This document shows positions 1-24,725 of a stretch of DNA of 32,000 bases, piece after piece. The notes below the pieces were generated by a model. It made no database searches. It was not told where the DNA came from and saw only the letters and a list, made by a program, of their open reading frames with translations. The stretch is taken from assembly GCF_008000775.2 (NCBI RefSeq), contig NZ_CP042905.2, forward strand, positions 4,080,001 through 4,112,000, read 5' to 3'. This stretch comes from Promethearchaeum syntrophicum. GTDB lineage: Archaea > Asgardarchaeota > Lokiarchaeia > Sigyniarchaeales > Promethearchaeaceae. Every line of letters starts with the position of its first letter. Within the stretch, counting starts at the first letter, position 1. A program made the position numbers and the translations under genes.

Positions 1-699
1 AATGAAAAAGTTTTTATTGATAAAAAACCCGAGAATTGGGATAAAAAATGGTATTTTGGATACAGAGATATTTCTGGAACGGATAATGAAAGAAGTTTCA
101 TAATTTCTGTATTTCCGCATAGTCCTTTTGTAAGTACTCTTAATGTTATAACAACAGATAAATTTAGGAATGAATTTATTTGCTTAATAGCTAACTTATC
201 ATCAATCATCTTTGATTTTATTGCTAGGAATAAAATTTCGGGGATCCATTTCTCTCAATATATTGTTAAGCAACTACCTGTATTTCCACCAGAAGTGTAT
301 TCAAAAGATCTCTTATTTCAAATCAAAAAAAGAGTTATAGAACTTGTTTATACATCTTCGGAAATGAATACTTTTATTACTGATTTTGGTTTCAAAGAGG
401 AATTAAAACCTTACAACTGGAAAGAAGAGAGAAGAGAGAAATTAAAAGCAGAGTTAGATGCAATATTTTCTTTAATGTACGGTTATAATAGAGAAAACCT
501 TCAATATATATTAAATACTTTTTCAAGATTACGAACAAATGAATTGAAATTACTTGGGGAGTTCAGAACAAAAAGACTGATCCTTGAATCTTATGATAAT
601 TTTGATTCCGATCCAAAATTAGGACCATTATTTCGACTAGAATCTATTAATTTGAAAAAAATAAATAGCAATTATTTAGCCAGAAGTGAAATAAAATGA
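1..699 (+). CDS. C-terminal part of a large DNA methyltransferase / type IIG-like R-M protein (5' end lies outside the window)
   Basis: Frame 1 is open from base 1 to the TGA at 697-699. The track start at 295 is only an internal GTG. The tail motifs [46 protein letters not shown] and [14 protein letters not shown] resemble, from memory, the conserved C-terminal region of Eco57I/gamma-class N6-adenine methylases that sit beside defence helicases. The stop overlaps the next start (ATGA at 696-699). Confidence 0.5.
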
Positions 700-3600
700 A
701 AAATATATTCTTACAAATTAAAACAATTCAAGAGCAATATAAATCCTTTATCCGCTCTTACCAGAAATTCAACAACCCAAAAATTCGTGATTGGGTTCAC
801 AAACAAATAGAAAGTGGAGGATTTATTTATCAGAATCCTGTCATTGATATTTCTCCCCAGTATAAGAAAGGTAAAAAACTTGAGGATTTCATCAGTGATT
901 CCACACTTCATCAAGAGATATCGGATATATTCTGGGCGGATAAAGATAATAAATCCATCAAGATTCATCCATACATTCATCAAGAACAAGCAATTCAGAA
1001 AACGGTTGCAGAAAATAAGAATATTATCGTTAGCACGGGAACGGGTTCAGGAAAATCAATGTGTTTTTGGATCCCAATTGTTTCACATTGCTTGAATGTA
1101 AAGGGTTCCAAAGGAGTAAAGACAATTGTTATCTATCCCATGAATGCACTTGCAAATTCACAATATCTGGATATTGTAGAAAGACTTCATGGTACAGGAA
1201 TAACGGTCGCAAAATATACGGGCGAAATGAAGAACACAGAAGAGCAAGCCCGAAATTATATTCAAAATGTTATTAAACGCAATATTTTCGATAGTGAAAT
1301 TGTTTCTCGCGAAGCAGTGGAAAAGAACCCACCAGATATTCTTATAACAAATTACAAAATGCTTGAATTGTTACTCACAAGGCATTTCAACCAGAAAATT
1401 TTCCGTGATAATGAAAAGGGGACCTTAAAATTTCTGGTTTTGGATGAAATCCATACATATAGTGGAAACAGCGGTGCAGATGTCGGATGTCTGATACGAA
1501 GGACAAAAGAGAAATTAAAAATGGATAAACCTATATGTATCGGAACTAGCGCAACAATAGAAGATACATCATCAATCAAAGGCAATATCATAAAAGAATT
1601 TGCAGAGAATATTTTTGGCGAACCCTTTCCTGATGATTTTCTCATTCAAGCAGAATATCTTGAAGAAATTATTCCTTCAGAAAAAACCATAGAATTACCA
1701 GATAAATCTAAGGTTAATCCGAAAGACATTGAAAAATTTAATAATTCTATTGGAAATACACTCCCGTTAGCAAAATCCCTTGTGAAATCAGAAGAAATCA
1801 TCCCTTCCTCACCTAATGAAAAGAATCTTGGCGAAATTTTCCAATATCATCCCACACTCGCTTTTATTAAGACACAAATTCGAGATACAGGACCTCAAAC
1901 AATTGAAAACATAGCAACTCTCTACCAAAAGTTGCAACGCAAGACCTTATCGATCGATGAATGTATTTTAGAGATAAAAGCAGGGTTATTGGTGGGTACA
2001 TTTTGCCAAGCGAAATTTGAGAATAAATATAGGTCTATTTTAGTTCCCAAAATCCATTTATTTTTCACCCAAGGAACGGTTATTCATGGTACATTAACTT
2101 CAAATGATCCTAATGATATAAAATTGGACATAAGTGGTGATAAAACACTTAATATCAAGGGAAATAAATCGGATGAAATACAGAATCGCGAAATACCTAT
2201 TTTTCCACTTGTGTTTTGTAAGCAATGTGGTTCGGAATTCTTTGGAGTGAAAGAAATGGAAAACGGCTTTTTATCCTCAGAATATTATAATCCATTTATT
2301 TCAGGACAGAGATTAATTATTTCCAAAATGGACGATACCAATCATACGCTCCATGATCTCGGAATTCCACCTGAATGGTTTAAAAGAGATGGGGGTATAC
2401 GTAAAAATTATATAGATAAAGTTCCTCAGAAAGCCTATTATTCCCCAAAACATAACATATTAAATCCGGAGTTAGATGATCCAGATAAGTTTTCCGTCTG
2501 GATTATCCCTGAAAGTTTTGAATTTTGCCCTAAATGTGCTGTTATTCATTCCAGTAATACAAGTAGGTTTCGTAAATTTTATTCATTTGATATTGTTGGT
2601 CGAAGTACAGCAACTGATATTTTAGTCTCAAATGCACTTACAGTACTTGAAAAGAAGCAGAAAAAAATTCTTATATTCTCGGATAATAGACAAGAAACAG
2701 CATTTCAAGCAGGCCATCTTAGAGATTTTCAAAGAAGAGTTTCATTCCAGCATGTAATGACCCATACATTAAAAATATTAAGTTCAAATAATGAATTTTT
2801 AGAACCAGGATATACTGGAAAAGATATATTTGCTAATATGAAAAAGATCTATGACTCAAATCCAGATATTGATTTTAAACTACCTTATGTTGAAGGTAAG
2901 CGTGAAAGCCGAGCGGAACGGCATTTCAAGGAATTTTTGGAATTCCTTGCATTATCTGAATTAAAATCTTCTAGTTATATTCTCCATACTGGAGTAGAAC
3001 GCTTTGGATTATTAAAGATTGTATACACTGGACTGGAAAAGCTAATTTCAAACACATCATTATGGTCTTCTGTACCCTCTCTATTAACACTTACTGATGA
3101 ACGACGATACGATTTGATTAGAGGTATTTTAGATGAGATAAGATGGTTTGGTGCAATTAACCATGATTTTCTAAATAAAACGGGAGATCACCTATCCAAT
3201 TGGGAAGATCATATACTACCACACTTCATGCAAGATCCAGGGGATTTCTTTTACAGAATATATGGCTATTCAGATGAGGAATTGAAGCAAGGAAAAAGGT
3301 TTAAAGGTCCACGGGTCATAACTCGAAAATTTAGCACACCCAGATCAACATTGAATAACTGGCTGAGAACTTTTATCAAAGTGAAAGCTGAAGAAGCATC
3401 GGAGATTTTGCTTTCAATTAAGGATGTTTTAATTCACAATGAATATTTAAATAAATTTACGACTTCTGTTGATTATAAAAATATCATTCAAGTTAATCCA
3501 AATAAAATAGAAATGCACTATAATCCAGATTCTAAAGTGAATTATTGCACGAAATGTCAGAGAGTTTATAATTTTAAAACAGTTGATGAATGTATTAGAA

Positions 3601-6104
3601 AAAGTTGTAGAGGAAAACTTGTTCTAACTGATTTCAATAATGATTACTATTATCGACTTTATAATTCTGAAATAAAACTGGATTCGAATATCCGACCTAG
3701 TGAACATAATGCATCACTAAAAGTTGACGATCGTGCAGATATTGAAAACAAATTCATAAAGCAATTCTTGAATGTATTGGTATCAACACCCACTATGGAG
3801 CTAGGTATTGATATAGGGAGTCTTTCTGCAGTTCTCCTACGAAATGTTCCTCCAGATGCAAGTAGATATGCCCAGAGGGCAGGTAGGGCAGGTAGATCAG
3901 GACAGACATCATTTGTGATGGTATTTTGTTCGTCAGGATTGTCTTCTAATAGGGGCCCACATGATAGATATTTCTACAAAAATCCAGAGAAAATCATTGC
4001 AGGACGTATTACTCCACCCCAGTTTGAACTAAATAACAAAAAATTGATTCAGAAGCATATTAACTCAATTATTATCCAAACAATTTCAAGTCATTTTAAA
4101 TTTGATAGGATGCCCAAACTGATATTTAAGGTAGAACATAAAGTAACGCCCCCCATTGTGGAATTAAATGAGGAATATAGTAAAGAACTTCAAGATGCCT
4201 TGAATTCCCATGAAACACGGATAATTAATTCAATTAGAAATATTTTCAGTAAGGAACTTGAAAGAACTGAATTCTCATGGCTCAATGAAACTTTGATTAT
4301 GAATTACGTGAAAAACTTCACCAATAGATTAAATGAAAATTACGGATTTTTCAGAAGATTACTTATCGAATACATTTTGGATCAAAGAAAATTGGAAGAT
4401 CTAATATTCGGAACAAGAAATAAAGAATTGGAAAGGAGGAAAATAACAATTTCAATTCAAATTGCAAAGATGCTAACAGGTGATGATGAATTTTTCATAT
4501 TTAATTACTTATCGGATCATGGATTTCTCCCAAATTATGGATTTTCATCAAGCAATACTGCAATACAAATGTATAAAAGCAGACCACCGAATATGGGAGA
4601 ACATGTATTTCATAGAGAAGCAATTATTGCCTTGAGAGAATTCGCGCCCCTTAACTCGATTTATTTCATGGGCTCCAAATATAGAGTAAATCGGGCAAAT
4701 TTACAGAATCAAGATGGTGAAAATGTTGGGATGGATAAGTGTTATATATGTGAAGATTGTAATTATATTGATTTTGGAACAGCAGTTGATACACGGCAGT
4801 ATTGTCCTATGTGTGGTGCATCAATAACTCCAAGTAGAGATATTCACAATTGCATTCCTTTCCCAACCATGAAGGCATCTTCGGGTGATTATATTGGATG
4901 TGATGAAGAACAAAGATCCATTAAATATTATGATGTAGTGGTTAATTACAAAGAACAACCTGAAAAAATGGAATATTTCGAGATAGATTCAAATGATGGA
5001 AATGTGTATGTAAAAGGTTCTTTTGATAGAGATGCACTTATTTACCATATAAATAAGGGACAAATTTCTTTCAATCCTGCAAATGATCAAAAATCAACTC
5101 CTTTCAATTTTTGTCTGGCATGTAACCAATGGGTTTCAGCAAAACGCGTGGAAGAGCACTTAACTGATGGAACAAAATTCTCTTGTAGAAATAAGCCAGT
5201 AGAAAGCGATATTCTAAAAGACCTGCTTCTTTTTACTAAGGGAACCCATGATGTAATAAAACTTAAATTTTCAATCTCAGATGAAATCATACAAAAAGGA
5301 GAAATGGAGATTGCTAAATACTATATTACGGTGAAAGAAGTTATTTTACAATCGATTCTAACCTCATTTAATTTATCGGAGCGAGAATTAGGAGGATTTA
5401 TACTTCCAATTCCAAATTCTAATGAGAAACACATTGTCATTTATGAATCCGAAGAGGGGGGAATGGGTGTATTAAAATCATTAATACATAAGGAAGATCG
5501 ATGGAATAGATTCTTAAAGAATATATTGGAACTAATACACATTAAGCAAGCAGATCCATTTGAAGAATATCCCGATAGTTGTAATAAGGTATGTTATAAT
5601 TGCTTACTCGGTTATTGGAACCAAAGAGAACATAATTATTTAGATAGACAAGTAGTAATTCCTCTAGTTTTATTGCTATCTGATTCTAAGATTAAAATGG
5701 TTTCCGTCAATCCTATAGAAATTCAGATGCAAAAGCTCAAAAATCTTCTCGGAGCAGGCCCCGATTCACATCTTGAGGTCAGAATTTTGGATTTCATGCT
5801 TTCTATGAAAATTCCACTTCCAGATGAAGCTCAATATAATATCAAGATTAAAAATGATGAAGGAGAAGAGTATATAGTAACATCAGCGGATTTCTATTAT
5901 AAGAATAAGAATATCTGTGTGTTTGTGGATGGTCCACCTCATGCAAAAACTCAAGAATCAGACAAAGAAAAAAGACGTAAAGTAAGGAGCACGGGAAAAG
6001 GAGTTTACGAGATGGATTTCTTTACTGGGATCGAAGAAGGACAATCAATACCTGATGAATTAATTGAAAAACGTCTAAATGAATTCAAGAATTATATTTC
6101 TTAA
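696..6104 (+). CDS. Giant SF2 DExH helicase fused to a DUF1998 (MrfA/DrmB-type Zn-binding) domain and a C-terminal Vsr/DUF559-like endonuclease-fold domain
   Basis: Helicase motifs: Walker [10 protein letters not shown], Ia [10 protein letters not shown], Ib [58 protein letters not shown]. Several CxxC zinc knuckles are present ([32 protein letters not shown]). The DUF1998-type end reads [10 protein letters not shown] ... [18 protein letters not shown]. The final ~110 aa ([43 protein letters not shown]) look like a DUF559/Vsr PD-(D/E)xK core, although the usual E before DG is not obvious. Confidence 0.85.
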
Positions 6105-6106
6105 CC

Positions 6107-6130
6107 AAAAATGATGATAAATTTTGCAGA
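6107..6130 (+). repeat. Variant copy of the inter-module repeat (aaaatgatgataaattttgcaga)
   Basis: It lies 3 nt after the helicase stop. It resembles the ATGA(A/G)ATGATAAATCTGCA form seen at 10498-10516 and 16691-16709, but needs a gap to align. Confidence 0.3.
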
Positions 6131-6192
6131 TTCTTTTAAAAGCAAATATTATCATTATTAGAATAATTTTTTTTATTTTCAGGTCAAAAAAA

Positions 6193-7128
6193 TTAATCTT
6201 CTTCTTCAATTTCGATTTTTCTTGCTAAAAATAATCCCCAATTTTGTTTTTGCTTTCGTTTTAGAGGAGAATATAAAGTGATTTTTAGGTTTGATTCACA
6301 AAGAGAGATATTCAGAAGATTTATTTTGGATTTGTTAAAAGATTGAAAATCTGATATCAAATTAAAAAGACTATGCATTTGTTTGATAGAAAAGAAGAAT
6401 TGATTCTTGCTCTTAATTTTTTGTTGGATAATTTGATGGTATTCACTCTCTTTCTCAATTATAAAAATCCTCAGTGAATCATTAAAATTTTTTTCTAAAA
6501 CATGGCAATTTTTGTAATGATATGAATCCCCCCAATTTTTTAGGGGAGATTCCTTCTCAAAATTCTTCTTAGAATCTAATTTTGAAGGAATCTGAATCTT
6601 ATTGGTGAAATCTAAAAAGATTGTTATTGATAGATCTACTGGTTCTATTTTGAGAATTGATGTACTATATGGTGAGATTTTCACATCATCACATTGTTTT
6701 TTCTTGAGAAGGGTGTTTAATTTTGAGATAATGGGTAGAATTCTGCAAAATTCAATAGAGTAAGTATTTAGAACCTTTTGTGAGTCTAAAATTGAATGAT
6801 GGTCAGTTATTCCTAATATACCCAACTCACCTAGTGCTAGATGAGAATTCACAATGTTAGGGAAAAATTGACCCCAAAATTCAGCATAACCACTAATATT
6901 CTTTGAAATCTTAACTTTTTTTGGATCTTTTTCGAATAGTGTAATCTGAGTAAGCTTTTGTTGATTTTTTCTTATCATCGATTTCTGGAGCAATGACTTA
7001 TTCAAATCAATCATACGGTTTTTGAGATTAAAACTTGCAGAATTTATGAATCTATTTAAATCAGATTGAATCAATTTGCTTTCTAAATTTCTATCTTCTT
7101 TTTTTGCTTTCAAAATTTTCCTTCTCAT
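6193..7128 (-). CDS. Hypothetical protein, 311 aa, last gene of the minus-strand operon
   Basis: A long uninterrupted ORF in the same orientation as the two upstream genes, with K/N/I-rich composition like its neighbours. I recognise no motif. Confidence 0.6.
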   Translation of the reverse strand: MRRKILKAKKEDRNLESKLIQSDLNRFINSASFNLKNRMIDLNKSLLQKSMIRKNQQKLTQITLFEKDPKKVKISKNISGYAEFWGQFFPNIVNSHLALGELGILGITDHHSILDSQKVLNTYSIEFCRILPIISKLNTLLKKKQCDDVKISPYSTSILKIEPVDLSITIFLDFTNKIQIPSKLDSKKNFEKESPLKNWGDSYHYKNCHVLEKNFNDSLRIFIIEKESEYHQIIQQKIKSKNQFFFSIKQMHSLFNLISDFQSFNKSKINLLNISLCESNLKITLYSPLKRKQKQNWGLFLARKIEIEEED

Positions 7129-7263
7129 TCATTTTTTTACTTCAAGATTAAAAATATCGACAATATTCTTATTACTAAAACCAAGTAGCTATAATTTTCA
7201 ATAGAATTTTAAATTTCATCGCACAATTAATAACCCGTAAATAATCCATTATTAAAAGAACAA

Positions 7264-7629
7264 TTAGTTTCCTTCTTTTTCTTTACATGCTAATATTTTC
7301 TTTTTAGTTTTTTCATTAATTGGGAAATCACCGTATTTCAAAGATATTTCATACCAGACTAAAGCATCTTTGAATTTTCCTTCTATTTGATAAATTTCAC
7401 CTTTAGAATCACTATAATTTGCGAGTTTTTCATATTTAGAATGTAGTTCTTTATCAGACGCGTTTTTTACAAAATCTAAAACTTCATCAATTATTTCGTG
7501 GACACGTTCGAATTCTCTCAAATATCCCATATTATATGCATCTAAATTAAACAACCAGAAGGTTACATAAATCAATTCACGAATCTCATAAAATCTAAAT
7601 AATTTATTTGTTTCTTCGTATCTTTTCAA
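7264..7629 (-). CDS. Small hypothetical protein with a TPR-like C-terminal helix pair
   Basis: 121-aa ORF lying 32 nt downstream of the 850-aa gene. LANYSDSKGEIYQIEGKFKDALVWYEISLKYG has a TPR-like residue pattern. Confidence 0.5.
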   Translation of the reverse strand: MKRYEETNKLFRFYEIRELIYVTFWLFNLDAYNMGYLREFERVHEIIDEVLDFVKNASDKELHSKYEKLANYSDSKGEIYQIEGKFKDALVWYEISLKYGDFPINEKTKKKILACKEKEGN

Positions 7630-7661
7630 CCGAGATAATGCAAATATTTTGGAACTCCTAT

Positions 7662-10214
7662 CTATTCTTTTCCTTTATATTTATATCCAAGTAATTCATC
7701 GATCCTTGGGGGTAAGATTTCGCGGCATTCATCGGCGGCTATTTCATCCATATCTTCTCCATGTGCACTCGGATTGCGAAATCTAATTGCGATTTCCTTA
7801 AATGAGTTGACAAAATCTTTATCTTTAAAAATCATGGAGCTGAATTCTTCTAAAAGAAATTGTTTAAAATGTTGTATCAGTGGACTTTTTTTAAGTGTTT
7901 TTTTGCCTCCAGCAAAATTAAGATAATTATTCATATCTCCCAGTGTAATTTTTAATCGTGTTCCAGAATTGGTTCTTAAACTTTGAATTTCCTTTGCAAA
8001 TTTATAAGTTTTATCAAATTTCAAATTAATTTCATCGGACAAAAAATTATCTATATCTTCTAAATGAATATTAAGATATTCGATAAAAGGAAGAAATATT
8101 TTACTTTTTGCTTCTCTCTCAAAGGATTTACAGTAATTATCAATTACTCCATTGTACATTGTATATTTAGTATACTTATATGATTCGTATTGTTGCTCCG
8201 CTTGAGGTAAGACATCTTTACTGAAATCTGTTAGATAATCCCAGAATTTTATTTTTTCTTTTAGCATCGCGATACAATTCATAGAAAAATCTTGGTAGAA
8301 TTCTGCCATGAATAAGGAGAAATCCAGTTTAGAACGATCAGAATCAGATGATTCATTTTGTTTAGAATCAAGATCTTGAATGAAACTGGTAAAATCTGGA
8401 ATTTCATTAATAACTAAAAATTGACCACCTGAAAAACAATAAAGATTTTCACCAGTAATAAGAAAAGCTTTCTTTATCTTATGGTCCTTACACAAATCTA
8501 CATATTTCTGATGAATTTCCTTCAAATCTAAAAATTTATCCCGAATGAAGATAAATGAAATCAACTCTTCATTCTGGAACAACGCTATGTCGATTATTTC
8601 GGTATCTAGAATCAAATCCGACTTACATTCCCAAGATTTCTGTCTGAGAGAATCCATATAAATCATTAACATTTTTCTATAACGTAAATATACCGGGACG
8701 GAGTTATCTGATAAATCTTCTAAACTTGATTGATCCAAAATGGGGATCTGTAAGGATTTGAGATCATCGATAGAAATATGTAATCCTCTCATTGTTTTAT
8801 TAACAAGAGTTGTGAAAATTCGCTTACCAGCTTCAGTATTGAAGAAGATTAAGTTTAAATATGAAGGAAATTGAAGAGAACGGATAACAATAATATTTTC
8901 GGATGCAATACATAGAGGATCTTCTTTGGAGACAATATATGTTTTAAGGGTGAGGTTATTGATGGAATGAATCGCGGGTACTAAGATATCCCCGGGTTTT
9001 AACTGAAAATTTTTGATTTTTTCAACATTCTCCATTTTAATGTATTTTTGAACAATCTCTCGGTTTCTTCTTCTTTCGTTGAATGGTTGAATTCTTCCTT
9101 CTAAAAAGTTTCGAGGTCCCACGACCATTATTTCACCAGAATTTGAGAGAATTTCCGAAATGTTCATTCTATGAATGCCTTGAAAAATTTTAGCAAATTC
9201 CCCTAAATTTTTGTAATTCAGGGATAAAATTGCATTAGATAATACACGATATTTAGGAGAATAATAATTCCAGTCCAATCGATATTGAGGGTGCTTAAAA
9301 ATATCATTAAGAGTAATTTCGATTGAATTTTGATTTTCAAGATCCACATTATTTGATTTTTCATCAAAATTCCTTAAATTAATCATTTTTATTGATGGTT
9401 TTGAAGATTTTTTTTTGATTTCTATCAAAATGAGTTCAAACCTTTGATGTACCCCTTCTATAGAACCATAAGGTAAATTAACGATTTGTTCAATGCAATA
9501 TCCTTCTAATATCTGCTTCCTTGTTTGAGTGAACCTATATCCAACGAGAAAAGATTTACCAACCAAAGCTATCATGGATCCGTTATCTTTTAATAATTTA
9601 AGTAATTTTAGAAAAAAATCGTTTCTTTTCCTTGGAGATTTTATATATGGTTCAGAAATGATATTATAGAAAATTAGATCGAATCTTTGATCTTTTTCTT
9701 TTTTTTGCTCTGGGTTAACAATATTTTCCTTTTTTGAAAAATCCAATAAGGTTCGAATTTCAGGAATCAGTGTGGATTTTTTCCCCCTTACCTTATAAAT
9801 ATCTATCAAATTAATCCCAGGATTCAAGATTTTTACAATACTTCTAAGATATTCATTTTCTTCTGTAGCAAAAATTATTGCATCTGTATCGATCCGTGCT
9901 AGAAATTCCCCATATCCAATATTAGGAATAAAAATATTAGAAAAATGCAATTTAAAGACTCTGATTTGCACTAATTTCCAAATGAGATCAGAAAATTTTG
10001 TAAATAAGATTTCTCTGTGCGGTCGTCTTGCAGTATTGACGATATATTCATTTCCCATTAAATCCAAGAGTTTGTAAAAATTAGAGTAACTGTGGTCTTT
10101 TTCTGACCGTAAAAGGTTGAGCAAAACTTCTAACCTTTTAGTTCGTTCAACTTCAATCTTTTCTTGCACAGTTGTTGTTTTTTCCATCTTTGGTTCTTCC
10201 TTTTTTAATTCCAA
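7662..10214 (-). CDS. Fusion protein: gamma-class DNA methyltransferase-like domain, TaqI_C/HsdS-like target-recognition domain and C-terminal HEPN domain
   Basis: Motif I-like IPNIGYGEFL. Motif IV position reads FDLIFYNIISEPY (SEPY instead of (D/N/S)PP(Y/F/W); codons at 9645-9665). Post-catalytic region DFFLKLLKLLKDNGSMIALVGKSFL ... RKQILEGYCIEQIVNLPYG. TRD-like LGEFAKIFQGI ... LKPGDILVPAI ... ASENIIVIR. HEPN Rx4H motif RFRNPSAHGE (RNPSAH at 7761-7778). The track start at 10214 is a TTG. An in-frame ATG at 10187 (MEKTTT) preceded by AGGAAG may be the real start. Confidence 0.7.
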   Translation of the reverse strand: MELKKEEPKMEKTTTVQEKIEVERTKRLEVLLNLLRSEKDHSYSNFYKLLDLMGNEYIVNTARRPHREILFTKFSDLIWKLVQIRVFKLHFSNIFIPNIGYGEFLARIDTDAIIFATEENEYLRSIVKILNPGINLIDIYKVRGKKSTLIPEIRTLLDFSKKENIVNPEQKKEKDQRFDLIFYNIISEPYIKSPRKRNDFFLKLLKLLKDNGSMIALVGKSFLVGYRFTQTRKQILEGYCIEQIVNLPYGSIEGVHQRFELILIEIKKKSSKPSIKMINLRNFDEKSNNVDLENQNSIEITLNDIFKHPQYRLDWNYYSPKYRVLSNAILSLNYKNLGEFAKIFQGIHRMNISEILSNSGEIMVVGPRNFLEGRIQPFNERRRNREIVQKYIKMENVEKIKNFQLKPGDILVPAIHSINNLTLKTYIVSKEDPLCIASENIIVIRSLQFPSYLNLIFFNTEAGKRIFTTLVNKTMRGLHISIDDLKSLQIPILDQSSLEDLSDNSVPVYLRYRKMLMIYMDSLRQKSWECKSDLILDTEIIDIALFQNEELISFIFIRDKFLDLKEIHQKYVDLCKDHKIKKAFLITGENLYCFSGGQFLVINEIPDFTSFIQDLDSKQNESSDSDRSKLDFSLFMAEFYQDFSMNCIAMLKEKIKFWDYLTDFSKDVLPQAEQQYESYKYTKYTMYNGVIDNYCKSFEREAKSKIFLPFIEYLNIHLEDIDNFLSDEINLKFDKTYKFAKEIQSLRTNSGTRLKITLGDMNNYLNFAGGKKTLKKSPLIQHFKQFLLEEFSSMIFKDKDFVNSFKEIAIRFRNPSAHGEDMDEIAADECREILPPRIDELLGYKYKGKE

Positions 10215-10370
10215 TTTGTTAATAGTACTTTAAATTATCGAAGAATGATACCCTTTTAATTTCTTCATAAAGTCTCTCAATCTATCAAATAAGTAGAAAT
10301 TGGAAGTTGTTAAAATTTTTAGTAGTAGTAATATCTTTTTTTCGGGGTTGTAATAAGTCTTCCTGTGGAT

Positions 10371-10516
10371 TTACAGAATGAAATGACATTTTTCTTCAAA
10401 CCTTTATATATGTTTTCGAAATTTTTACAGAATGAAATGACATGGTTTATATAGGAATGAAATGACATGGTCGCAGATAATCTGCAATTTTTACAGAATG
10501 AGATGATAAATCTGCA
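10371..10516 (+). repeat. Cluster of four copies of the inter-module repeat (core ATGAAATGACA)
   Basis: The identical 19-mer ttacagaatgaaatgacat occurs at 10371-10389 and 10425-10443. A shorter copy, ggaatgaaatgacatgg, is at 10454-10470. A variant, ttacagaatgagatgataaatctgca, is at 10491-10516. The near-palindrome gcagataatctgc is at 10473-10485. Confidence 0.85.
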
Positions 10517-10610
10517 CCACATTAAAAGAAATTTAAAAAATGAAATAAAAAAAGAATTTCGAATCATAGATATATTAAAATCCACAAACCATTTTAGATT
10601 TTACAAGAAA

Positions 10611-11366
10611 TTAATATCCATAAACCACCGTACTATGTTCTGCGTTTCCCACTTTATCCAGTAAATCTCGATCCGAAATTTGCTCCCCATCTTCCACACT
10701 ATAAGCTCTTGCTTTGGTCTTTCTTTTTCTTAAGGTGTCTAATAATTCTAAAGCTTCAAATTCTGATAAAAATCCAATATAAAAATCATCCCCGTTTTTC
10801 TGAGTTTTTAATTCAAAAAATGAATTTGGAAAAGTATCTACAACCCAATTTTTAAATCCTTTCATATTATTGAATTTCTCCTCAAAATAAACTTCTATTG
10901 CTTCAAAATCTGCCCCACTACCAGAATATATATGTTCTACTCGTTCATAGAGATGGAGTGATCTATCTTCTGTTATTGGGAGGTAATCTTCATCTCTATC
11001 TCCGTATACCATTAATTTTAAGATATAACTACCATATTCTTGTCCTAATTCTTTATTCAGGTTTTTGTCTCCATTTAAATATTTCGATGGAACATTCTCT
11101 TGGGAAAATCTAACATAAATAAATAATCGTATTTTATTCTTATCCCAATCATCGTCTTTTTCAAATATTTTTTCAATCCCGAACCTTAAATCTTCAAAGT
11201 TCTTAAACCCATATTTAGCAAAGAATGAATTCACATCTTCAGGAATTTTCCTTTCTGAAAGAAAATATGCATTGATAAGATCTCGATTAGATTCTGTAGT
11301 AATTAAACAGATCAAAGCTTGAATTTCAAATTTTGAGTCGGTAATTAATTCATTATTATTGTTCAT
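10611..11366 (-). CDS. Hypothetical protein, 251 aa
   Basis: Uninterrupted ORF 75 nt downstream of the 343-aa gene on the same strand. The protein is acidic with no recognisable motif. Confidence 0.6.
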   Translation of the reverse strand: MNNNNELITDSKFEIQALICLITTESNRDLINAYFLSERKIPEDVNSFFAKYGFKNFEDLRFGIEKIFEKDDDWDKNKIRLFIYVRFSQENVPSKYLNGDKNLNKELGQEYGSYILKLMVYGDRDEDYLPITEDRSLHLYERVEHIYSGSGADFEAIEVYFEEKFNNMKGFKNWVVDTFPNSFFELKTQKNGDDFYIGFLSEFEALELLDTLRKRKTKARAYSVEDGEQISDRDLLDKVGNAEHSTVVYGY

Positions 11367-11441: not shown

Positions 11442-12473
11442 TCATTCTGTTTCACCTTTTGATATCTTGAATCGTAATTGGTACTTGAAAAACACTACAT
11501 CATTGAGGACTGAGAGAATTTCTGAAATTTCAGATTTCCTTTTTAAAAATTGAGCGTTTCTTTTCAAAGTCACCTTATTGTTATTAAAACAATTAGTGGG
11601 GAAAGACATCATTCCATTGTCCACTAAAACTGACTCGAGATTTATAACATCGTCTACAGCCCAATCGGAAGAAGATATCGCCATAAATTTTATATTGGCA
11701 TATTTTCCATTTTTTGATTTTCCATTTTTTAAATTTATGTGATCTCTAAATCTGATACGAGATTTTTCACTCCTGCCAACATAAAATCCATCTATACCAG
11801 ATTCTTTATGATTGCAAATCTTATAGTAGACCGAAGGAAATTGAAAAACTTTCTTATCTAGTTTATCAAATGATCTTTCTGGAAAAAACCATAAATTGAA
11901 TCCCTTAAAAATTATTTTCTTAATAGAACCTTTAAAAACTTTAACCGTGTAATTGAAATCATCATTAATTTCATCCGGACAGAAATTTTCATCATATATG
12001 TATCCTCCTTTAACCTTCCTGATTTTTAAATTTTCGTTTGGAAGGTCTTTATTGTAATTTGCTTGATATTTTTTCTCAGTCCCATTTTCGTTTACATGTG
12101 TCTTTCTATAAAAAAGACTCAATATAGTTGGAGACACAACAATACCGGGAAAATTATATATTATCATTCGAAGGAATAATATAACTTTTTCTTTACATGC
12201 AGGAAAAAAACGTTTAGGGAGAATCCTTCCAATAAAATATTTCATCTTAATGTTATCGAAACGATCTAAAATCTTATGTAATTTTTTACCATGATCTTGA
12301 CAAAAATCATGAAGATCTGAATATGCTGTTGGTTTTTTTACTCTATTATTTTCTCTCCAAATTGATTTTGATAATACTAAACTTGAGAATATTATCACCA
12401 AAATAAATAATTTGTCCAAATTTGAATTGAAGACAAACAGATAATATATTTTTATTATATTTAAGTTAGTCAT
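11442..12473 (-). CDS. Hypothetical protein with an N-terminal hydrophobic helix and a C-terminal GIY-YIG-like nuclease core
   Basis: The N-terminal LFILVIIFSSLVLSKSIW segment looks transmembrane. The C-terminal SVYYKICNHKESGIDGFYVGRSEKSRIRFRDH ... INLESVLV ... CFNNN follows the GIY-(x10)-YIG, R..H, E, N order of GIY-YIG nucleases. The start codon is uncertain. Confidence 0.45.
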   Translation of the reverse strand: MTNLNIIKIYYLFVFNSNLDKLFILVIIFSSLVLSKSIWRENNRVKKPTAYSDLHDFCQDHGKKLHKILDRFDNIKMKYFIGRILPKRFFPACKEKVILFLRMIIYNFPGIVVSPTILSLFYRKTHVNENGTEKKYQANYNKDLPNENLKIRKVKGGYIYDENFCPDEINDDFNYTVKVFKGSIKKIIFKGFNLWFFPERSFDKLDKKVFQFPSVYYKICNHKESGIDGFYVGRSEKSRIRFRDHINLKNGKSKNGKYANIKFMAISSSDWAVDDVINLESVLVDNGMMSFPTNCFNNNKVTLKRNAQFLKRKSEISEILSVLNDVVFFKYQLRFKISKGETE

Positions 12474-12740: not shown

Positions 12741-15191
12741 ATGGAACGGAAATATAATCTTCTCAATATGTGGGTGCTATTTCAGCGATATAATATTACC
12801 AGAAATTTCAACACCCGCGGATTTGATCAAAATAAAGTAGAATGTGAAAGATTAACTCGAGAATCTCTATTCTCCATGAAACTCAAACACTCCCCGTTTT
12901 TCAGAGCGAGAATGTATACTCACCTTATGTTCAATGAAGCAACTAAAGACCACAATAGTGATGTTTGGCGTTTTTTGCGGAAAAAAATTAGGAATTTCGC
13001 TAAATTCTATCAAGAAATCAGTCATATACAGAGTGAAGTCGATTACGTTCCGATTTTAGCTGATGAAATGATCAAGTTTTCTCTAAAAGAAGGTTCGAAT
13101 TTTATGACATGGGGAATCGTAATGTTTGACTCCCAAATGGACTTTAGAAAGGACGAACAAGATAGATTCATTAATCTGCTAGGAATAACACAAGAAACTG
13201 GAAATATAGAATTAACTTTCCCGTTAATCTCATGTATACAGGAAAATTTTCTCCATAAATCCATGGATTTTTTAGCCTTCTCTCATCCCGAAGGAGAAGA
13301 TTTCTATGTGGATTATTTCCGTTTATATAAAGCCAAATATATGGTTGAAACATTCCAACCCGTGTTCATGGATTGGCTTTTTTCTCAACAAGGACTAGAA
13401 GATGATTTGAAATCTTTTATATCAATTTTAAATTCTGTTTTTATCATTGCTATTTCCAAACCCTTAGAGCAAATTGTTGAGATTATGGAAGATTTGGGAG
13501 GTATTAAGATAATTGGATCTGAAATTTTCGACTTGATTGAATTAAGCGAAATATTCCTTCTGGAATATTGGAATTCTATTGAGATAGATGATCAGATTGT
13601 ATTATTGAATGAATGGCCTGATTCCACTTTCATGTACGAATTTATCTCAGTAATTCCGCAACTTTTTAATCAAGATTTAGCTTTACAACATCTGGAAAAT
13701 CTTTTAAAAATTATGCAAAGGTACGGTTACCATCAAGAAAATCTCGCTTTTCTAGAAGAAAGTCCAAAGGAATATCAATATTTAAACAAAATGAAAAAGA
13801 TATATGGAAATCCAAATGAAAACTTCAATATTTACGCGAGATTAAATTTAGCTCAAGCTCTGCATTTTGGCGATCTTGCCCATACAGAAAGATTGTTAGA
13901 TTATATTTTAAAATCTCCACCCGATTCAAGGGAAAATCTGAAAATTCTAAATTATTATGCTGCGAATCTTAATTTTTTTCAAGAAAAGTGGTCATCAGCA
14001 GAAATCTTCTTTAGAAAGATTGTTGAACCAGACCAAGAGATGAGTCTCAAGCAGAGAGTAATGGCTACGCTCTGTCTATTAATGGATGGAAACACTGAAA
14101 AATTCTATGGTGAATTTGAGGATATCCTGCATAACCACTCGATCCATGCGAATGCAACCCTACCTGAAATTCGAGATTTGTATTGGGATCTTATCGCAAT
14201 GAAGGGTATTTCTTACATGTTTCAGCTAACAGATATCCTAATAGAGAGGGGAAACATTGACGGACCCAAATTATGCAATGAAATGGGGCAAATATCTGCA
14301 GATCTGGGTTATTTTAATGAAGCAATTAAATTTTATAATCGAGGGTTCGAATTTAAAATTTCCGATATATTTAGAGGAAATCTCTACAACAATATAGGCT
14401 CGGTTCTTAACCAGCAAGGAAAATTGGATGAGTCTATTGAAAAGTTCCAACAAGCCGTTGCTCTTAATCCGAATAACGCTCGAGTATGGTTAAATATGTC
14501 CAAATCTTATGGTTTCAAAGGAGAACCGATGAAAGCGTTAGAATGTATAAAGCATACTCAAAAAAATCTCAATTTAGATTCTTCCTCGCTTGCAGAATTT
14601 ATTTGGAGTAACTATGAATCCAATAGGATTGGATTTTTAGCTCATTCCATCATCAATTATAATGCAATTGAATTTTCCGATATTAAAACACAGTTTCGGT
14701 TAGCAGACCGTTTATTTTTTAAATCCTTTCCCCAAGATCCCGACCTACAAGAATTAGCTACATCAATCTTCATGCATTATGGGAATGGAATAGAACTACT
14801 TTTCCATTATAAATTAGGGGCTGCATTTACGAATAAGATTAAAGAGTTGCATGGGGATGATTTGAAAAAATTACGAAATTATAAATTAAAAAAGAACATC
14901 CCAAAAGAATTGCACAATTTGCTATATGAAAATCACGTTAGCCATAGTAATTGGGGAAAAATCATTGAAAATTTTCTCAGGACACCTATAGAAGAGAGAT
15001 TTATACATTATACATCATGTTTTGAGGATTTCAAAGAAGACGAGTTAAAATTGTTAAAGAACGCAGTTGAATTCGCGGGAAAATGGAGAAATCCGAGTGA
15101 TCATGGAGAAATATTAAATTATGATGTTGTTAAGAAATACCGATCACAGTTAATTTTTCTCATTAATTCAAGTCTTGAAATCTTTAGGTGA
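12741..15191 (+). CDS. All-helical repeat/TPR protein with a C-terminal HEPN domain
   Basis: TPR-type repeats: GNLYNNIGSVLNQQGKLDESIEKFQQAVALNPNNARVWLNMSKSYGFKGEPMKALECIKH. The C-terminal HEPN Rx4H motif is AGKWRNPSDHGE (RNPSDH at 15087-15104). The tail is clearly paralogous to that of the 850-aa protein. I saw no Walker A motif. Confidence 0.7.
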   Translation: MERKYNLLNMWVLFQRYNITRNFNTRGFDQNKVECERLTRESLFSMKLKHSPFFRARMYTHLMFNEATKDHNSDVWRFLRKKIRNFAKFYQEISHIQSEVDYVPILADEMIKFSLKEGSNFMTWGIVMFDSQMDFRKDEQDRFINLLGITQETGNIELTFPLISCIQENFLHKSMDFLAFSHPEGEDFYVDYFRLYKAKYMVETFQPVFMDWLFSQQGLEDDLKSFISILNSVFIIAISKPLEQIVEIMEDLGGIKIIGSEIFDLIELSEIFLLEYWNSIEIDDQIVLLNEWPDSTFMYEFISVIPQLFNQDLALQHLENLLKIMQRYGYHQENLAFLEESPKEYQYLNKMKKIYGNPNENFNIYARLNLAQALHFGDLAHTERLLDYILKSPPDSRENLKILNYYAANLNFFQEKWSSAEIFFRKIVEPDQEMSLKQRVMATLCLLMDGNTEKFYGEFEDILHNHSIHANATLPEIRDLYWDLIAMKGISYMFQLTDILIERGNIDGPKLCNEMGQISADLGYFNEAIKFYNRGFEFKISDIFRGNLYNNIGSVLNQQGKLDESIEKFQQAVALNPNNARVWLNMSKSYGFKGEPMKALECIKHTQKNLNLDSSSLAEFIWSNYESNRIGFLAHSIINYNAIEFSDIKTQFRLADRLFFKSFPQDPDLQELATSIFMHYGNGIELLFHYKLGAAFTNKIKELHGDDLKKLRNYKLKKNIPKELHNLLYENHVSHSNWGKIIENFLRTPIEERFIHYTSCFEDFKEDELKLLKNAVEFAGKWRNPSDHGEILNYDVVKKYRSQLIFLINSSLEIFR

Positions 15192-16640: not shown

Positions 16641-16685
16641 ATCAAAATTCAATGGTTATAGGAAATTCGAAAATCTGGAAATATT

Positions 16686-16744
16686 CCAGAATGAAATGAT
16701 AAATCTGCATATTTTTAACTCAAAATTTCGGAATTGAAATGATA
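16686..16744 (+). repeat. Two further copies of the inter-module repeat, lying between convergent gene ends
   Basis: ccagaatgaaatgataaatctgcat at 16686-16710 nearly matches cagaatgagatgataaatctgca at 10493-10516. cggaattgaaatgata is at 16729-16744. Confidence 0.7.
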
Positions 16745-21491: not shown

Positions 21492-22358
21492 TTATGTCAT
21501 TTCATGTTTAAGTTGCTTGAAATAATCTCCATTCCTAGACATGTAATGATTATAGGAAAAATTAATTAACTTTAATCCTTCTTTTAATCCATTTGATAAA
21601 ATAGGTGCACTATATTTCAACTCATTTTTATAATTTTGAATAAATCGCCCATCAGGTGAGATAATACAATATGATTGATTTAAAATGTTCTCATTTTCAA
21701 ATATTGGATTCAATCCTTTATGATATTGTAAGAAAAAATCAATTTGGGTTTCAGATGGAACTTGAGATTGCTTGAAAAATTGATTATTAATTGATGGAAT
21801 TTGATGAACTATCAAAATTTTCCATCTCACAGGTTTTAATAGTGTTATGAGTGAATAAAAATCATCATTCCAGTTGATAGAAGTTAAAACGGTATTAATT
21901 TTTAAAGGAATATTAAAAGATTTAATTAATTTATTGGCTTTTTCTATTGTTTCTAAATGGGAATATCTTCCATTTTTACTATGATTTAAGGTTCTACCTA
22001 AAATTAATTCCTTTTTTTCACATGGGGAATCTAAACTTAGCCCTATTAAATCCATATCTTTATGACAATCATTGAGAAATTTCTTTTTTATACCAGTTCC
22101 GTTTGAAATGATTGAAGTGAAAATTCCATAGTTTTTGGTATGTTGGATTAAATTGCTCAAATATGGAATTAATGTAGGTTCACCACCAGCAAAATTTAGT
22201 TTCATACATCCTCCTTCAGCAAGCATATCAATGATTTTCATCCATTGAGACTCATTTAATTCACTTCCGAGTGATCTATTCCGAGCAAAACAAAATTTAC
22301 ATCGATAATTACATCGATTGGTGATGTGCAAATTAACGGATTCAATTTTATTTTCCAT
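21492..22358 (-). CDS. Prokaryotic viperin (pVip), radical SAM enzyme
   Basis: It aligns by eye along its whole length with human viperin: SVNLHITNRCNYRCKFCF vs SVNYHFTRQCNYKCGFCF; KLNFAGGEPTL vs KINFSGGEPFL; SIISNGT vs SIVSNGS; LKPVRWKIL vs LNPVRWKVF; QSYCIISPDGRF vs DSYLILDEYMRF; SRNGDY vs KRGGKY. Confidence 0.9.
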   Translation of the reverse strand: MENKIESVNLHITNRCNYRCKFCFARNRSLGSELNESQWMKIIDMLAEGGCMKLNFAGGEPTLIPYLSNLIQHTKNYGIFTSIISNGTGIKKKFLNDCHKDMDLIGLSLDSPCEKKELILGRTLNHSKNGRYSHLETIEKANKLIKSFNIPLKINTVLTSINWNDDFYSLITLLKPVRWKILIVHQIPSINNQFFKQSQVPSETQIDFFLQYHKGLNPIFENENILNQSYCIISPDGRFIQNYKNELKYSAPILSNGLKEGLKLINFSYNHYMSRNGDYFKQLKHEMT

Positions 22359-22360
22359 AT

Positions 22361-22834
22361 CTAAACCTTTCCAGTTATTAAATCATTATATTGCGATTGA
22401 AAATCTTGCAAGTATTGTGCATTTTCTTGAAATTGAAAATCTTCTTCTATATTTTGTGTAAAAAATAGATTATGATCAATGATCATAAATCCAATGCGAT
22501 GGTTTTTTAACCAATTTTTTGATATAAATGAATATTCCCTGAATAAATCATTAGAAATTATCAAACATTGAAGCTCAGTGGCACATTTCAAAATAAAAAC
22601 ATCCGCAGCTACACCTGCTGGAGCTTCAAAAATTAATTTGGAAACTAAATATTCGGTTTTATATCTTTTTCGATCGTCTATTTGATGATATAACGAATTA
22701 TCGGCGATTCCGATAATTTCATAATCTTTTGGAATTGAATTGAATAAAATATCAATGTATCCAATTTTAGGCTTCCCATTTCTTTTGTTGAAACAGGCAA
22801 TATTAGAGATATCACATACAATAATTTTTTTCAT
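22361..22834 (-). CDS. NYN / Zc3h12a-like (PIN-fold) ribonuclease domain protein
   Basis: KKIIVCDISNIAC (compare VVIDGSNVA), AADVFILKCATE (compare YDDRFIVKLA) and LIISNDLFREY (compare IVVSNDTYRDL) place acidic residues where the Zc3h12a NYN catalytic residues lie. Its stop is 2 nt from the viperin start. Confidence 0.6.
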   Translation of the reverse strand: MKKIIVCDISNIACFNKRNGKPKIGYIDILFNSIPKDYEIIGIADNSLYHQIDDRKRYKTEYLVSKLIFEAPAGVAADVFILKCATELQCLIISNDLFREYSFISKNWLKNHRIGFMIIDHNLFFTQNIEEDFQFQENAQYLQDFQSQYNDLITGKV

Positions 22835-23263: not shown

Positions 23264-24022
23264 TTATGTTCTGATTAAATAATTTGCGAGAATAGTACCC
23301 ATTCGCGTTAAGCGCAATTCAAAAGCTCGATTATCTTCAACATTATGGGATCGAATTAGCAATTTATGCTTTTCAAGTTTTTTTACATGATAACTTAGAT
23401 TTTGCCCTTTCATTTTCGTGGTTTTACTATCTCGCCAATATTTTCTCCATTTTGGCTCATTTATTTCAACGGCTAATTCACTTTGATTCAAAATTTCAGG
23501 TTTTTTTTTATTTTTCATATTACTATTTAGAACAAATAAAATAACTTTCTGAACGTTTGTAATATCCGATATTGGCACAGATGGCATTTCAATATCAATG
23601 AATGTATTCCTTTCATTAAGATTATGGTTAAATTTATCGGGTGCTTTAATATATTGAATACGTGCGCCAATAAGGTTGGCTCCCATAAATGCACCAAGGG
23701 ACATAACTTTCGTTCCCCCTGTAACATTTACAATAAAATCAACCTTTAGATCTTTATGAAGACTATGAATTTCCAGAACAGAGTTAAGAACACTCTCATA
23801 ATCAAAAGGATCTATTATTAAATAATTTACGGTATCTTTAGGAAAAAAAAAATGAGATTCAATCTCTGACTTTATAGTAGATTCATATTTCTCCGTTAAA
23901 AAATAGAATTTATAAATGCGATCTAAACGAATTCCACGAAGTGCAGCAATAATAGGATCGAGATTTGCTCTTTTTTCCTTTTTATTGATACCAAGAGTTG
24001 AAATATAAACTATTTTTTCCAT
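23264..24022 (-). CDS. csa3: Csa3-like transcriptional regulator (N-terminal CARF/Rossmann-like domain plus C-terminal wHTH)
   Basis: The N-terminal strand IVYISTLG and the CARF-type loop FIVNVTGGTKVMSLGAFMGANLIG are present. The C-terminal QNLSYHVKKLEKHKLLIRSHNVEDNRAFELRLTRMG is MarR/wHTH-like. It is divergent from the CARF-helicase-PLD operon across a 73-bp spacer. Confidence 0.65.
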   Translation of the reverse strand: MEKIVYISTLGINKKEKRANLDPIIAALRGIRLDRIYKFYFLTEKYESTIKSEIESHFFFPKDTVNYLIIDPFDYESVLNSVLEIHSLHKDLKVDFIVNVTGGTKVMSLGAFMGANLIGARIQYIKAPDKFNHNLNERNTFIDIEMPSVPISDITNVQKVILFVLNSNMKNKKKPEILNQSELAVEINEPKWRKYWRDSKTTKMKGQNLSYHVKKLEKHKLLIRSHNVEDNRAFELRLTRMGTILANYLIRT

Positions 24023-24095
24023 AAATTAATCAAGTTATTTCTTTTACAATCAAATAAAAACTTTAAGTATTTATTAATTATAATTATGAAATAGA

Positions 24096-24725
24096 GTGAA
24101 TCATGATCAAGAAAACAGGATTTTCTTTGAAAGTTCGATTTCAATGGGGGTATTTTTAACGTCTGTGCAAATTTTAGTCGTAGGGAGATCTCACGCTCAT
24201 ATCTTGAAAGTATTGAAACTAAAACACCCAGATAAAGTCATTTTGATTGTATCAAAAAAATTGAAAGATCAAAATGAAGAATTATACCTAAACTTGAAAA
24301 AAAAACAAAACAATTTGGAAATTATTCATGTGAACCCATTTCACCGTGATTTTTTACCTCAAATGATAACTCATTATATTCATATTTACCAAAAACTAAA
24401 GGTAGTTAATCCTAGTGCAGAGGTCCAAATTGGTTTAACAGGAGGGACGAACCTCATGGCTATCGCAGCAGGGATCTCTGCTATGTTATTAGGTATTGAA
24501 GCACATTATTTTGTTAAAGGGAAAGTAAAGCCATTGATATGGAATTTGAAAAATGATTTAGCAGATTTTATACTATCTAATTCTTCAAATTTTTATTTCC
24601 TTCAAACAGAAGATAATACAAGAGATAAAAATAAAATGTCAAAACTTAATTCTGAATATTCCTCTGAAGGAAAGGAGAAATCATTATTGAATTTTCAAGA
24701 AGAAAAAAGAGGGAGGACAATTTAA
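24096..24725 (+). CDS. Stand-alone CARF-like (Csa3 N-domain-like) protein
   Basis: VQILVVGRSHAHILKVL ... DKVILIVS ... VQIGLTGGTNLMAIAAGISAMLLG mirrors the strand and GGT(K/N)-loop layout of the neighbouring Csa3-like N-domain. The track start is a GTG, with an alternative in-frame ATG at 24144. The stop overlaps the helicase start (TAATG at 24723-24727). Confidence 0.5.
   Translation: MNHDQENRIFFESSISMGVFLTSVQILVVGRSHAHILKVLKLKHPDKVILIVSKKLKDQNEELYLNLKKKQNNLEIIHVNPFHRDFLPQMITHYIHIYQKLKVVNPSAEVQIGLTGGTNLMAIAAGISAMLLGIEAHYFVKGKVKPLIWNLKNDLADFILSNSSNFYFLQTEDNTRDKNKMSKLNSEYSSEGKEKSLLNFQEEKRGRTI

Follow-up and report, generated by a model that had tools for sequence, protein, structure and literature searches.

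Among the described systems that come closest to the protein reported here, PrrC and RloC are HEPN anticodon nucleases tied to type I restriction-modification (R-M) systems, e.g. EcoprrI (PMC3710099), and the HsdMS decoy of Ronin functions without methylase catalysis (10.1101/2023.04.06.535777). Anantharaman et al. (2013; PMC3710099) noted that R-M-linked HEPN domains are fused to nucleases, helicases and ATPases "but not to the methylases". The protein in question, encoded by DSAG12_00298 of the Asgard archaeon Promethearchaeum syntrophicum MK-D1, combines in one chain a methylase-like domain, a target recognition domain (TRD) and a HEPN-like tail, and the family to which it belongs is an exception to that generalisation. 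Its gene lies in a stretch of 32,000 nucleotides (nt) with about 29% GC (NZ_CP042905.2, positions 4,080,001 to 4,112,000), which was analysed as a whole and is termed the window below. As the HEPN residues are near-invariant in this family while motif IV of the methyltransferase (MTase) has decayed, the scaffold appears to have been repurposed. In sequence, the family looks like a pseudo-methylase scaffold with an effector kept by selection, and it is on balance probable, by analogy with PrrC or Ronin, that a pseudo-methylase/TRD sensor controls a HEPN RNase within the single fused protein.

Architecture and conservation of the fusion protein

The protein is composed of an MTase-like domain, a TRD, a degenerate PD-(D/E)xK domain, a coiled coil and a HEPN-like domain, in this order, and an N-terminal helical segment precedes the Rossmann fold of the MTase-like domain, as seen in an alignment of 32 full-length family members (alignment A1) and in an AlphaFold2 (AF2) model. 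The 850-amino-acid (aa) open reading frame (ORF) of the window is identical to DSAG12_00298, and its parts are located as follows.

7662..10214, minus strand: DSAG12_00298, the fusion gene, with an 850-aa ORF from a TTG; the annotated start, ATG at 10187, gives 841 aa
9288..10010, minus strand: gamma-class N6-MTase-like Rossmann domain, aa ~60-300 of the 841-aa form
9903-9920, minus strand: GxG loop IGYGEF, inside the MTase-like domain
9645..9665, minus strand: motif IV position NIISEPY, read as SEPY or as N-I-(ISE)-P-Y with a three-residue insertion
8688..9275, minus strand: single TRD, TaqI_C/HsdS-like, aa ~305-500
8403..8645, minus strand: HSDR_N-like PD-(D/E)xK insert, degenerate here (IIDIAL…FIFIR, E and K lost)
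8253..8393, minus strand: linker and long coiled-coil helix; longer in most relatives
7665..8240, minus strand: C-terminal all-helical HEPN-like (Abi_2-like) domain, with a predicted local distance difference test score (pLDDT) above 90
8112-8120, minus strand: ERE (ExE), upstream of the Rx4H motif in the HEPN-like domain
7761-7778, minus strand: Rx4H motif RNPSAH, within RFRNPSAHGE; the R and H codons span 7778-7761

Among 129 C-terminal domains of the family, the arginine and the histidine of the Rx4H motif are each retained in 128, and of the two glutamates of the upstream ExE motif the first is found in 128 and the second in all 129 (QYCRALENE in the family, NYCKSFERE in MK-D1). All four of these near-invariant residues are present in the MK-D1 copy. 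A single Rx4H motif in a protein is expected by chance. The first-pass annotation, which had been made from the letters of the window and their translations, had already named a C-terminal HEPN domain with an Rx4H motif and had suggested looking for conservation of the motif among homologues; the claim is supported by the retention of both residues across the family and by Abi_2 matches in some of its members. Abi_2 is the sole repeated Pfam match of the tails (3 of 30, best E-value (E) 2e-6, sub-threshold), and in the relative P0006, residues 680-819 align with positions 44-182 of the 184 positions of the Abi_2 profile, at 22.6 bits versus a cut-off of 25.6. Four further HEPN families, Ribonuc_2-5A, Hypoth_Ymh, HEPN_RiboL-PSP and DUF4145, each gave one weak match among the tails. 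Motif and profile comparisons make it very probable that the tail of the fusion protein belongs to the HEPN superfamily.

At motif IV of the methylase-like head, the canonical [DNS]PP[FYW] occurs in 2 of the 76 N-terminal domains of the family and [DN]xP[FYW] in 10, and even xxP[FYW] is wholly missing in 38. The MK-D1 protein is non-canonical under either alignment of its motif IV, and the earlier observation of SEPY in place of (D/N/S)PP(Y/F/W) therefore holds for this protein and applies in kind to nearly the whole family. The residues of the S-adenosylmethionine (SAM) loop are moderately kept in the same 76 domains (the aspartate of motif I in 49, the second glycine in 60, the acidic residue of motif II in 48), and SAM binding may, to judge from these residues, survive in many members. 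The MK-D1 copy has kept the GxG and the motif II glutamate and has lost the acidic residue of motif I, which is replaced by isoleucine.

The fold of the head is that of a gamma-class MTase with a recognition domain, as had been proposed from the layout of the sequence. The AF2 model, which was built on a 145-sequence alignment (pLDDT 83, predicted template modelling score 0.71; the single sequence gave a pLDDT of 33 only), was matched by Foldseek to CamA, M.TaqI, M.BseCI, BpuSI and BrxX in alignments of about 600 columns, with E between 1e-13 and 1e-11. Pfam N6_Mtase reached 16.3 bits on the fusion protein, below its gathering cut-off of 20.4, and among the 32 aligned members N6_Mtase matched 24 (E≤0.01), Eco57I 13 and Methylase_S 12. 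The PADLOC model mad2 for the MADS methylase MAD2 matched the MTase region (1.3e-5). For the TaqI_C/HsdS-like recognition domain, the assignment is upheld by the PADLOC type I specificity model (Specificity_I, aa 389-496, 1.4e-5), by NCBIfam MAD5, an S subunit, which matched the 841-aa form (1.6e-7), and by Foldseek; a first NCBIfam scan of the fusion protein at E <= 0.1 had given no match. The stretches 'FDLIFYNIISEPY' and 'IGYGEF' are both present in the 850-aa protein, and all three ORFs and motifs quoted in the first-pass annotation were found where it had placed them. PDB sequence searches with the whole fusion protein, a profile of its tail, and the 121-aa and 311-aa proteins encoded next to it gave no usable match.

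Between the TRD and the HEPN domain lie the PD-(D/E)xK insert and the coiled coil, both of which had been overlooked before. The insert is optional, being present in 12 of the 32 relatives, and among these 12 the D and the E are retained in all and the K in 10; HSDR_N-type models (HSDR_N/HSDR_N_2) match two family members. As E and K are replaced in MK-D1 (FIFIR), the nuclease motif of this copy is dead as far as the sequence tells.

The family and its genomic settings

The first-pass annotation had treated the fusion as unique, and this did not stand. When 1.84 billion cluster representatives were scanned exhaustively with HMMER, 181 relatives passed E<1e-3 and 92 passed E<1e-10. Some 60 of the relatives have a length of 700-900 aa and match both the N-terminal stretch 200-610 and the C-terminal stretch 650-845. 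The MK-D1 protein is a divergent member, with 24-30% identity to its relatives. A word-indexed search of 5.8 billion proteins with the single sequence recovered the MK-D1 protein alone, and a word-index profile search with alignment A1 recovered generic MTase and HsdS proteins only; the orphan status that could have been read from these searches is ruled out by the full HMMER scan.

The same HEPN clade is found on more than one type of carrier. Among the 149 best representatives, 61 combine a gamma-class MTase with the HEPN domain, 15 combine a beta-class MTase with it, and 57 carry the HEPN domain behind other N-termini or none. The beta-class subfamily, with proteins of about 600 aa (loci L018, L023, L024, L028, L030, L037, L041 and L044), has the same tail on an N6_N4 Mod-like methylase, in which DPPW is intact in five of eight members and FxGxG in six of eight. 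Several of its genes adjoin ResIII helicase genes in a type III-like setting, and by sequence these members are type III-like R-M systems with a HEPN domain on the Mod subunit. In a separate observation, a 1493-aa protein encoded on a Chondrinema litorale plasmid (L052; NZ_CP111062.1, 5089-9570) and annotated as a RecD-like helicase carries the same HEPN clade at its end (29% identity, E 2e-8), with a DEAD/DEAH helicase, a WYL protein and Cas6 as neighbours.

Outside MK-D1, members of the family were found in bacteria and untyped metagenomes only. A scan of one genome per species gave 44 loci, all of them bacterial (Bacteroidota, Bacillota, Planctomycetota, Cyanobacteria, the candidate phyla radiation and others); as copies as divergent as the one of MK-D1 itself would escape the search pattern, absence from other archaea is not established. 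No relatives were found on the viral contigs searched. Neither Pfam nor NCBIfam nor PADLOC contains a model dedicated to the MTase-HEPN family, and a literature search, whose incomplete coverage means that absence is not proof, found no description of such a fusion.

Roughly half of the family members at 43 bacterial loci are embedded in R-M operons, either of type I or type III-like. Genes for HsdM, HsdS, HsdR or Res-type proteins are located at most 6 kb away in 21 of the 43, nearly always on the same strand, and in locus L004 HsdM, HsdS and HsdR were confirmed by Pfam. Other neighbours are McrBC, GmrSD, UvrD-PDDEXK, NERD helicases and CBASS. No partner gene conserved across the family was found in the loci compared, and a conserved downstream partner in particular was rejected, as the genes downstream of relatives are heterogeneous (PD-(D/E)xK, GmrSD, trypsin-like, resolvase). 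Since the family has no dedicated partner, regulation of the fusion proteins is probably intramolecular or exerted through co-resident R-M complexes.

The proposed mechanism, the MK-D1 locus and competing explanations

According to the reading favoured here, the MTase-like and TRD head would no longer methylate and would instead be a sensor, binding DNA, SAM or those phage anti-restriction proteins that act on M-S complexes. Like half-HsdS proteins, the fusion protein would dimerise via its coiled coil. An alteration of the sensor would then join two HEPN domains to form an active composite RNase site, and the activated RNase would cut host transfer RNA (tRNA), ribosomal RNA or messenger RNA, whereupon the infected cell would halt. 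Such a system would work without a dedicated antitoxin, within one polypeptide. The core of this idea, a methylase/TRD scaffold serving as sensor or specificity module of a HEPN effector, goes back to the first-pass annotation and fits the conservation across the family as well as its R-M and defence-island settings.

Several points weigh against the pseudo-methylase sensor. The MK-D1 fusion protein has no HEPN match in Pfam, and the HEPN assignment is built on motif conservation and on Abi_2 matches below threshold. The MK-D1 copy is the most degenerate one, with the loss of the motif I acidic residue and of the PD-ExK residues and with its short coiled coil, and it lies outside any R-M operon. 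As DPPW is kept in five of the eight beta-class members, the HEPN fusion does not need a dead methylase, and a sensor-only function may not be valid for every member. The trigger proposed above is purely presumptive, and RNase activity, toxicity, defence and the lack of methylation are predictions from sequence and model.

A wider proposal is made tentatively. A single Abi_2-like HEPN clade may have been fused repeatedly to methylase and recognition subunits of R-M systems, those of the gamma class being mostly dead and those of the beta class mostly intact, and this could have produced single-chain guard or decoy mimics that turn R-M inhibition or the recognition of foreign DNA into RNA cleavage; such fusions would contradict the 2013 rule and would reach into an Asgard archaeon beside an ARMADA-like system. 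If the reading favoured here were true, a widespread defence architecture would exist without a Pfam, NCBIfam or PADLOC family of its own, and the published rule on R-M subunits fused to HEPN domains would be revised. The fusion would physically couple the self/non-self reading head of R-M systems to a suicide RNase in a compact single-protein system, which raises the question of how R-M-type sensors trigger abortive infection and whether Ronin-type decoy immunity is common. For the only Asgard archaeon in long-term culture, the immune repertoire would also gain a component that had gone unannotated.

Two of the competing explanations involve genes on the downstream side of the fusion gene.

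1-699, plus strand: C-terminus of a 1459-aa PglX/MmeI-like MTase (MmeI/Eco57I-type), which runs off the window start
696-6104, plus strand: 1802-aa YprA/DruE-like helicase with DEAD and MZB/DUF1998 domains and a Vsr-like tail
6193..7128, minus strand: DSAG12_00296, 311-aa protein, function unassigned, separately conserved and outside the fusion's unit
7264..7629, minus strand: DSAG12_00297, 121-aa ORF, small and helical, start uncertain

For the 1802-aa helicase, the DruE1 model gave 6e-127; its Vsr-like tail was read from the sequence, without a profile match. In ARMADA type I systems of archaea, the methylase precedes a YprA-like helicase, and ARMADA type II needs a fourth gene that bears an RNase (PMC12458937). 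By its sequence and archaeal gene order, the MK-D1 methylase-helicase pair looks like ARMADA type I, a comparison limited to the window, outside of which a BrxHII-like helicase would fall. The earlier statement that no separate restriction subunit is present was true of the genes directly adjacent to the fusion gene, but this module of a PglX-like MTase and a YprA/DruE-like helicase-Vsr lies right beside them.

The fusion protein could in principle be a dedicated accessory effector of this ARMADA/Druantia-like system, comparable to a fourth component such as ArmD, which would be kept inactive by the complex and freed when the complex is inhibited. This would agree with the need of ARMADA type II for an RNase-bearing fourth gene and with the distance of 1.5 kb between the fusion gene and the helicase gene, and in the second-best homologue, P0005, the family gene directly and co-directionally follows a homologous MTase (38%, C-terminus) and helicase (31%, full length). 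YprA-like helicases also adjoin family members in L011 and L042, and an SNF2 helicase together with a PglX-like MTase adjoins the one in L016. However, the fusion accompanies ARMADA-like genes in MK-D1, L049, L011, L042 and partly L016, and most family loci lack them. The association is confined to a minority, with adjacency in only about 4 of 55 loci; type I and type III R-M contexts are far commoner. In MK-D1 the helicase-methylase module is convergent with the fusion gene, with two other ORFs between them. A close relative of MK-D1, known from two metagenome contigs (L001/L002) and termed the sister strain below, has kept the methylase-helicase pair with 93-95% conservation and has no fusion gene, even though its helicase is 95% identical, and HEPN domains are not mentioned in the ARMADA paper (PMC12458937). 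A dedicated accessory function is hence unlikely. By analogy, some type I systems could still use the fusion in the way that ARMADA type II uses its fourth protein, and the MK-D1 copy, next to the ARMADA/Druantia-like helicase-methylase system, probably acts as an effector on its own or as a back-up. Its identity with DruH or DruM of Druantia was considered and rejected, as PADLOC gave no such match.

Less probable still, and quite improbable, is a bacterial gene that was acquired horizontally, is now decaying and has lost its defence function. Such a relic would explain that the MK-D1 copy is the most divergent member, with at most 30% identity, that the residues named above are lost and the linker is shortened, and that the sister strain lacks the gene, but an ORF of 850 codons is intact in a genome of 29% GC, all four near-invariant HEPN residues are kept, and the fold is confidently predicted. 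There is similarly little to be said for an active DNA adenine MTase, orphan or single-chain R-M-like, with an unusual catalytic loop and a regulatory or structural tail. The MTase fold, the GxG loop, the motif II glutamate and the TRD are all there, and some relatives have D/N-x-P-F/W or, in the beta-class subfamily, DPPW. Against this, the catalytic residue of motif IV is unconstrained in the family, and MK-D1 itself has SEPY or a three-residue loop insertion, lacks the acidic residue of motif I and stays below the N6_Mtase threshold of Pfam, while the strongest conservation measured is that of Rx4H and ExE in the tail and not that of motif IV. This makes an active enzyme a poor candidate.

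The first-pass annotation had described the fusion gene and the two small genes as a three-gene operon with modulators or an antitoxin, and had suggested looking for the same gene order in relatives, where it is not conserved. The spacers on the common strand are 32 nt between the 850-aa and the 121-aa genes and 135 nt between the 121-aa and the 311-aa genes. The 311-aa protein has a homologue with 87% identity in the sister strain, where its gene stands alone between a Wadjet operon and a block of a uracil-DNA glycosylase (UDG), a 299-aa protein and the helicase. DNA identity of the sister strain to the window is 93% over 695-6103 and 91% over 6130-7265; the homology includes 137 nt upstream of the 311-aa gene, and its end coincides precisely with the stop codon that closes the 121-aa ORF, and no homologue of the 850-aa or the 121-aa protein was found in this strain. 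Beyond MK-D1, the 121-aa ORF was not found at all; its start has been annotated in three ways (121, 103 and 88 aa), and it is tied to the 850-aa gene by position only. Its description as TPR-like stands insofar as UniRef names it a TPR protein, but with E 0.069 the match to Pfam TPR_1 is weak. The mobile unit comprises at most the 850-aa and the 121-aa genes. That the two small proteins neutralise or tune a HEPN toxin has hardly any likelihood, as, despite the common strand, the short spacers and the helical 121-aa ORF, neither of them has a homologue beside any of the 44 family loci, the genes downstream of relatives differ, and the 311-aa gene with its upstream region persists in a strain without the other two.

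Where MK-D1 has the 121-aa and 850-aa genes and the rest of the island, the sister strain has a Wadjet (JetABCD) operon (L001 1640-9518), and the 299-aa gene and the UDG-like gene between its helicase and 311-aa genes are extra. The defence island has clearly been turned over between these two closely related Asgard strains. The window as a whole is a dense defence island, which includes the DruE/YprA-like helicase, a TPR protein with an RNxxxH tail, a MAD6/PD-T4-6-like kinase, Gabija, viperin with an NYN RNase, two CARF proteins, a Mokosh-like helicase, a phospholipase D-type (PLD) nuclease and a UDG-like protein; no CRISPR array, tRNA or Rfam match was found in it. Features upstream of the fusion gene are as follows.

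10366..10548, minus strand: direct-repeat array TCAT(T/C)TCATTCTGTAAA, upstream of the 850-aa gene
10611-11366, minus strand: 251-aa protein without matches
11442-12473, minus strand: 343-aa protein with a weak GIY-YIG match (E 0.046, aa 219-264)
12741-15191, plus strand: 816-aa TPR protein ending in WRNPSDHGE (PADLOC 'TPR' PDLC02907, 2e-14)
21492-22834, minus strand, and 23264-24725: prokaryotic viperin pVip (1e-67), immediately followed by the NYN/Zc3h12a-like RNase, with two divergent CARF proteins beside them, one with a MarR-type helix-turn-helix, one CARF-TM-like

The repeat array, 150-330 nt upstream of the 850-aa gene, consists of three near-perfect and one or two degenerate copies spaced 54, 66 and 42 nt, and a further copy with two mismatches lies at 16683-16699, after the kinase gene. 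At up to three mismatches, the window contains six matches versus 0.96 expected, and none of 100 shuffles reached six; the array may be an operator, a promoter or another regulatory element. The 251-aa and 343-aa genes were rejected as partners, as no homologues occur near relatives of the fusion gene. The tail of the 816-aa protein (RNPSDHGE) resembles the family HEPN profile weakly (hmmsearch E 0.005; hhalign E 2e-4, probability 44%), and this protein, 2.5 kb away, is probably a second, LA2681-like TPR-HEPN effector. Membership in MADS, which the MAD2, MAD5 and MAD6 matches suggested, was rejected as well: MAD6, MAD7 and MAD8 together are mandatory in the model of the MADS authors, and the window contains no MAD7, a MAD8 match of only 2e-5 within the Mokosh-like helicase, and a MAD6-like kinase 5 kb off on the other strand that scores about equally with PD-T4-6 models.

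Comparison with known systems

How does the fusion relate to systems that are already described? With the gamma-class MTases M.TaqI, CamA and BrxX/PglX and with MAD2 plus MAD5, it shares the fold and domain order of its first ~500 residues, and the family finds its best PADLOC and NCBIfam matches in MAD2 and MAD5. Unlike these gamma-class MTase-TRD proteins, it has lost the NPPY-type motif and has gained PD-(D/E)xK, coiled-coil and HEPN parts, and unlike MADS, the MK-D1 locus is without the MAD6-8 core operon. Abi_2 proteins of the AbiD/AbiF type provide the closest profile for the tail, have the RNxxxH motif and are common in R-M neighbourhoods, but the tail scores below the Pfam threshold, and Abi_2 proteins stand alone, without methylase or TRD modules. 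ArmD of ARMADA type II, a RelE-like RNase fused to a GajB-like helicase, is likewise an RNase-bearing extra component encoded near a PglX-like MTase and a YprA-like helicase-Vsr, whereas the fusion has another RNase fold and another carrier domain, and its association with ARMADA-like genes occurs in few loci and is not co-directional in MK-D1.

The two systems named at the outset are the models for the proposed mechanism. In PrrC and RloC, a C-terminal HEPN RNase is restrained by an N-terminal regulatory module, and the genes lie within hsdMSR operons and serve as a suicide back-up when restriction is defeated (PMC3710099), which resembles what is proposed for the fusion. The N-terminus of PrrC and RloC, however, is an ABC/Rad50-like ATPase, whereas that of the fusion is methylase-like and followed by a TRD, the HEPN clade of the fusion is Abi_2-like, and the MK-D1 copy lies outside an hsd operon. 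Ronin shares with the fusion an R-M-derived M-S module that acts without a nuclease subunit as sensor or decoy. In Ronin, however, HsdM and HsdS are separate proteins and the effector is the 61-aa membrane protein RonA, whereas the fusion unites M, S and effector in one chain and its effector is a HEPN domain; the ORFs adjacent to the fusion gene are not RonA-like as judged by architecture, RonA not having been searched by sequence, and the sensing of anti-restriction proteins is only presumed for the fusion, by analogy. The fusion is probably a further variant of the R-M-linked abortive-infection effectors.

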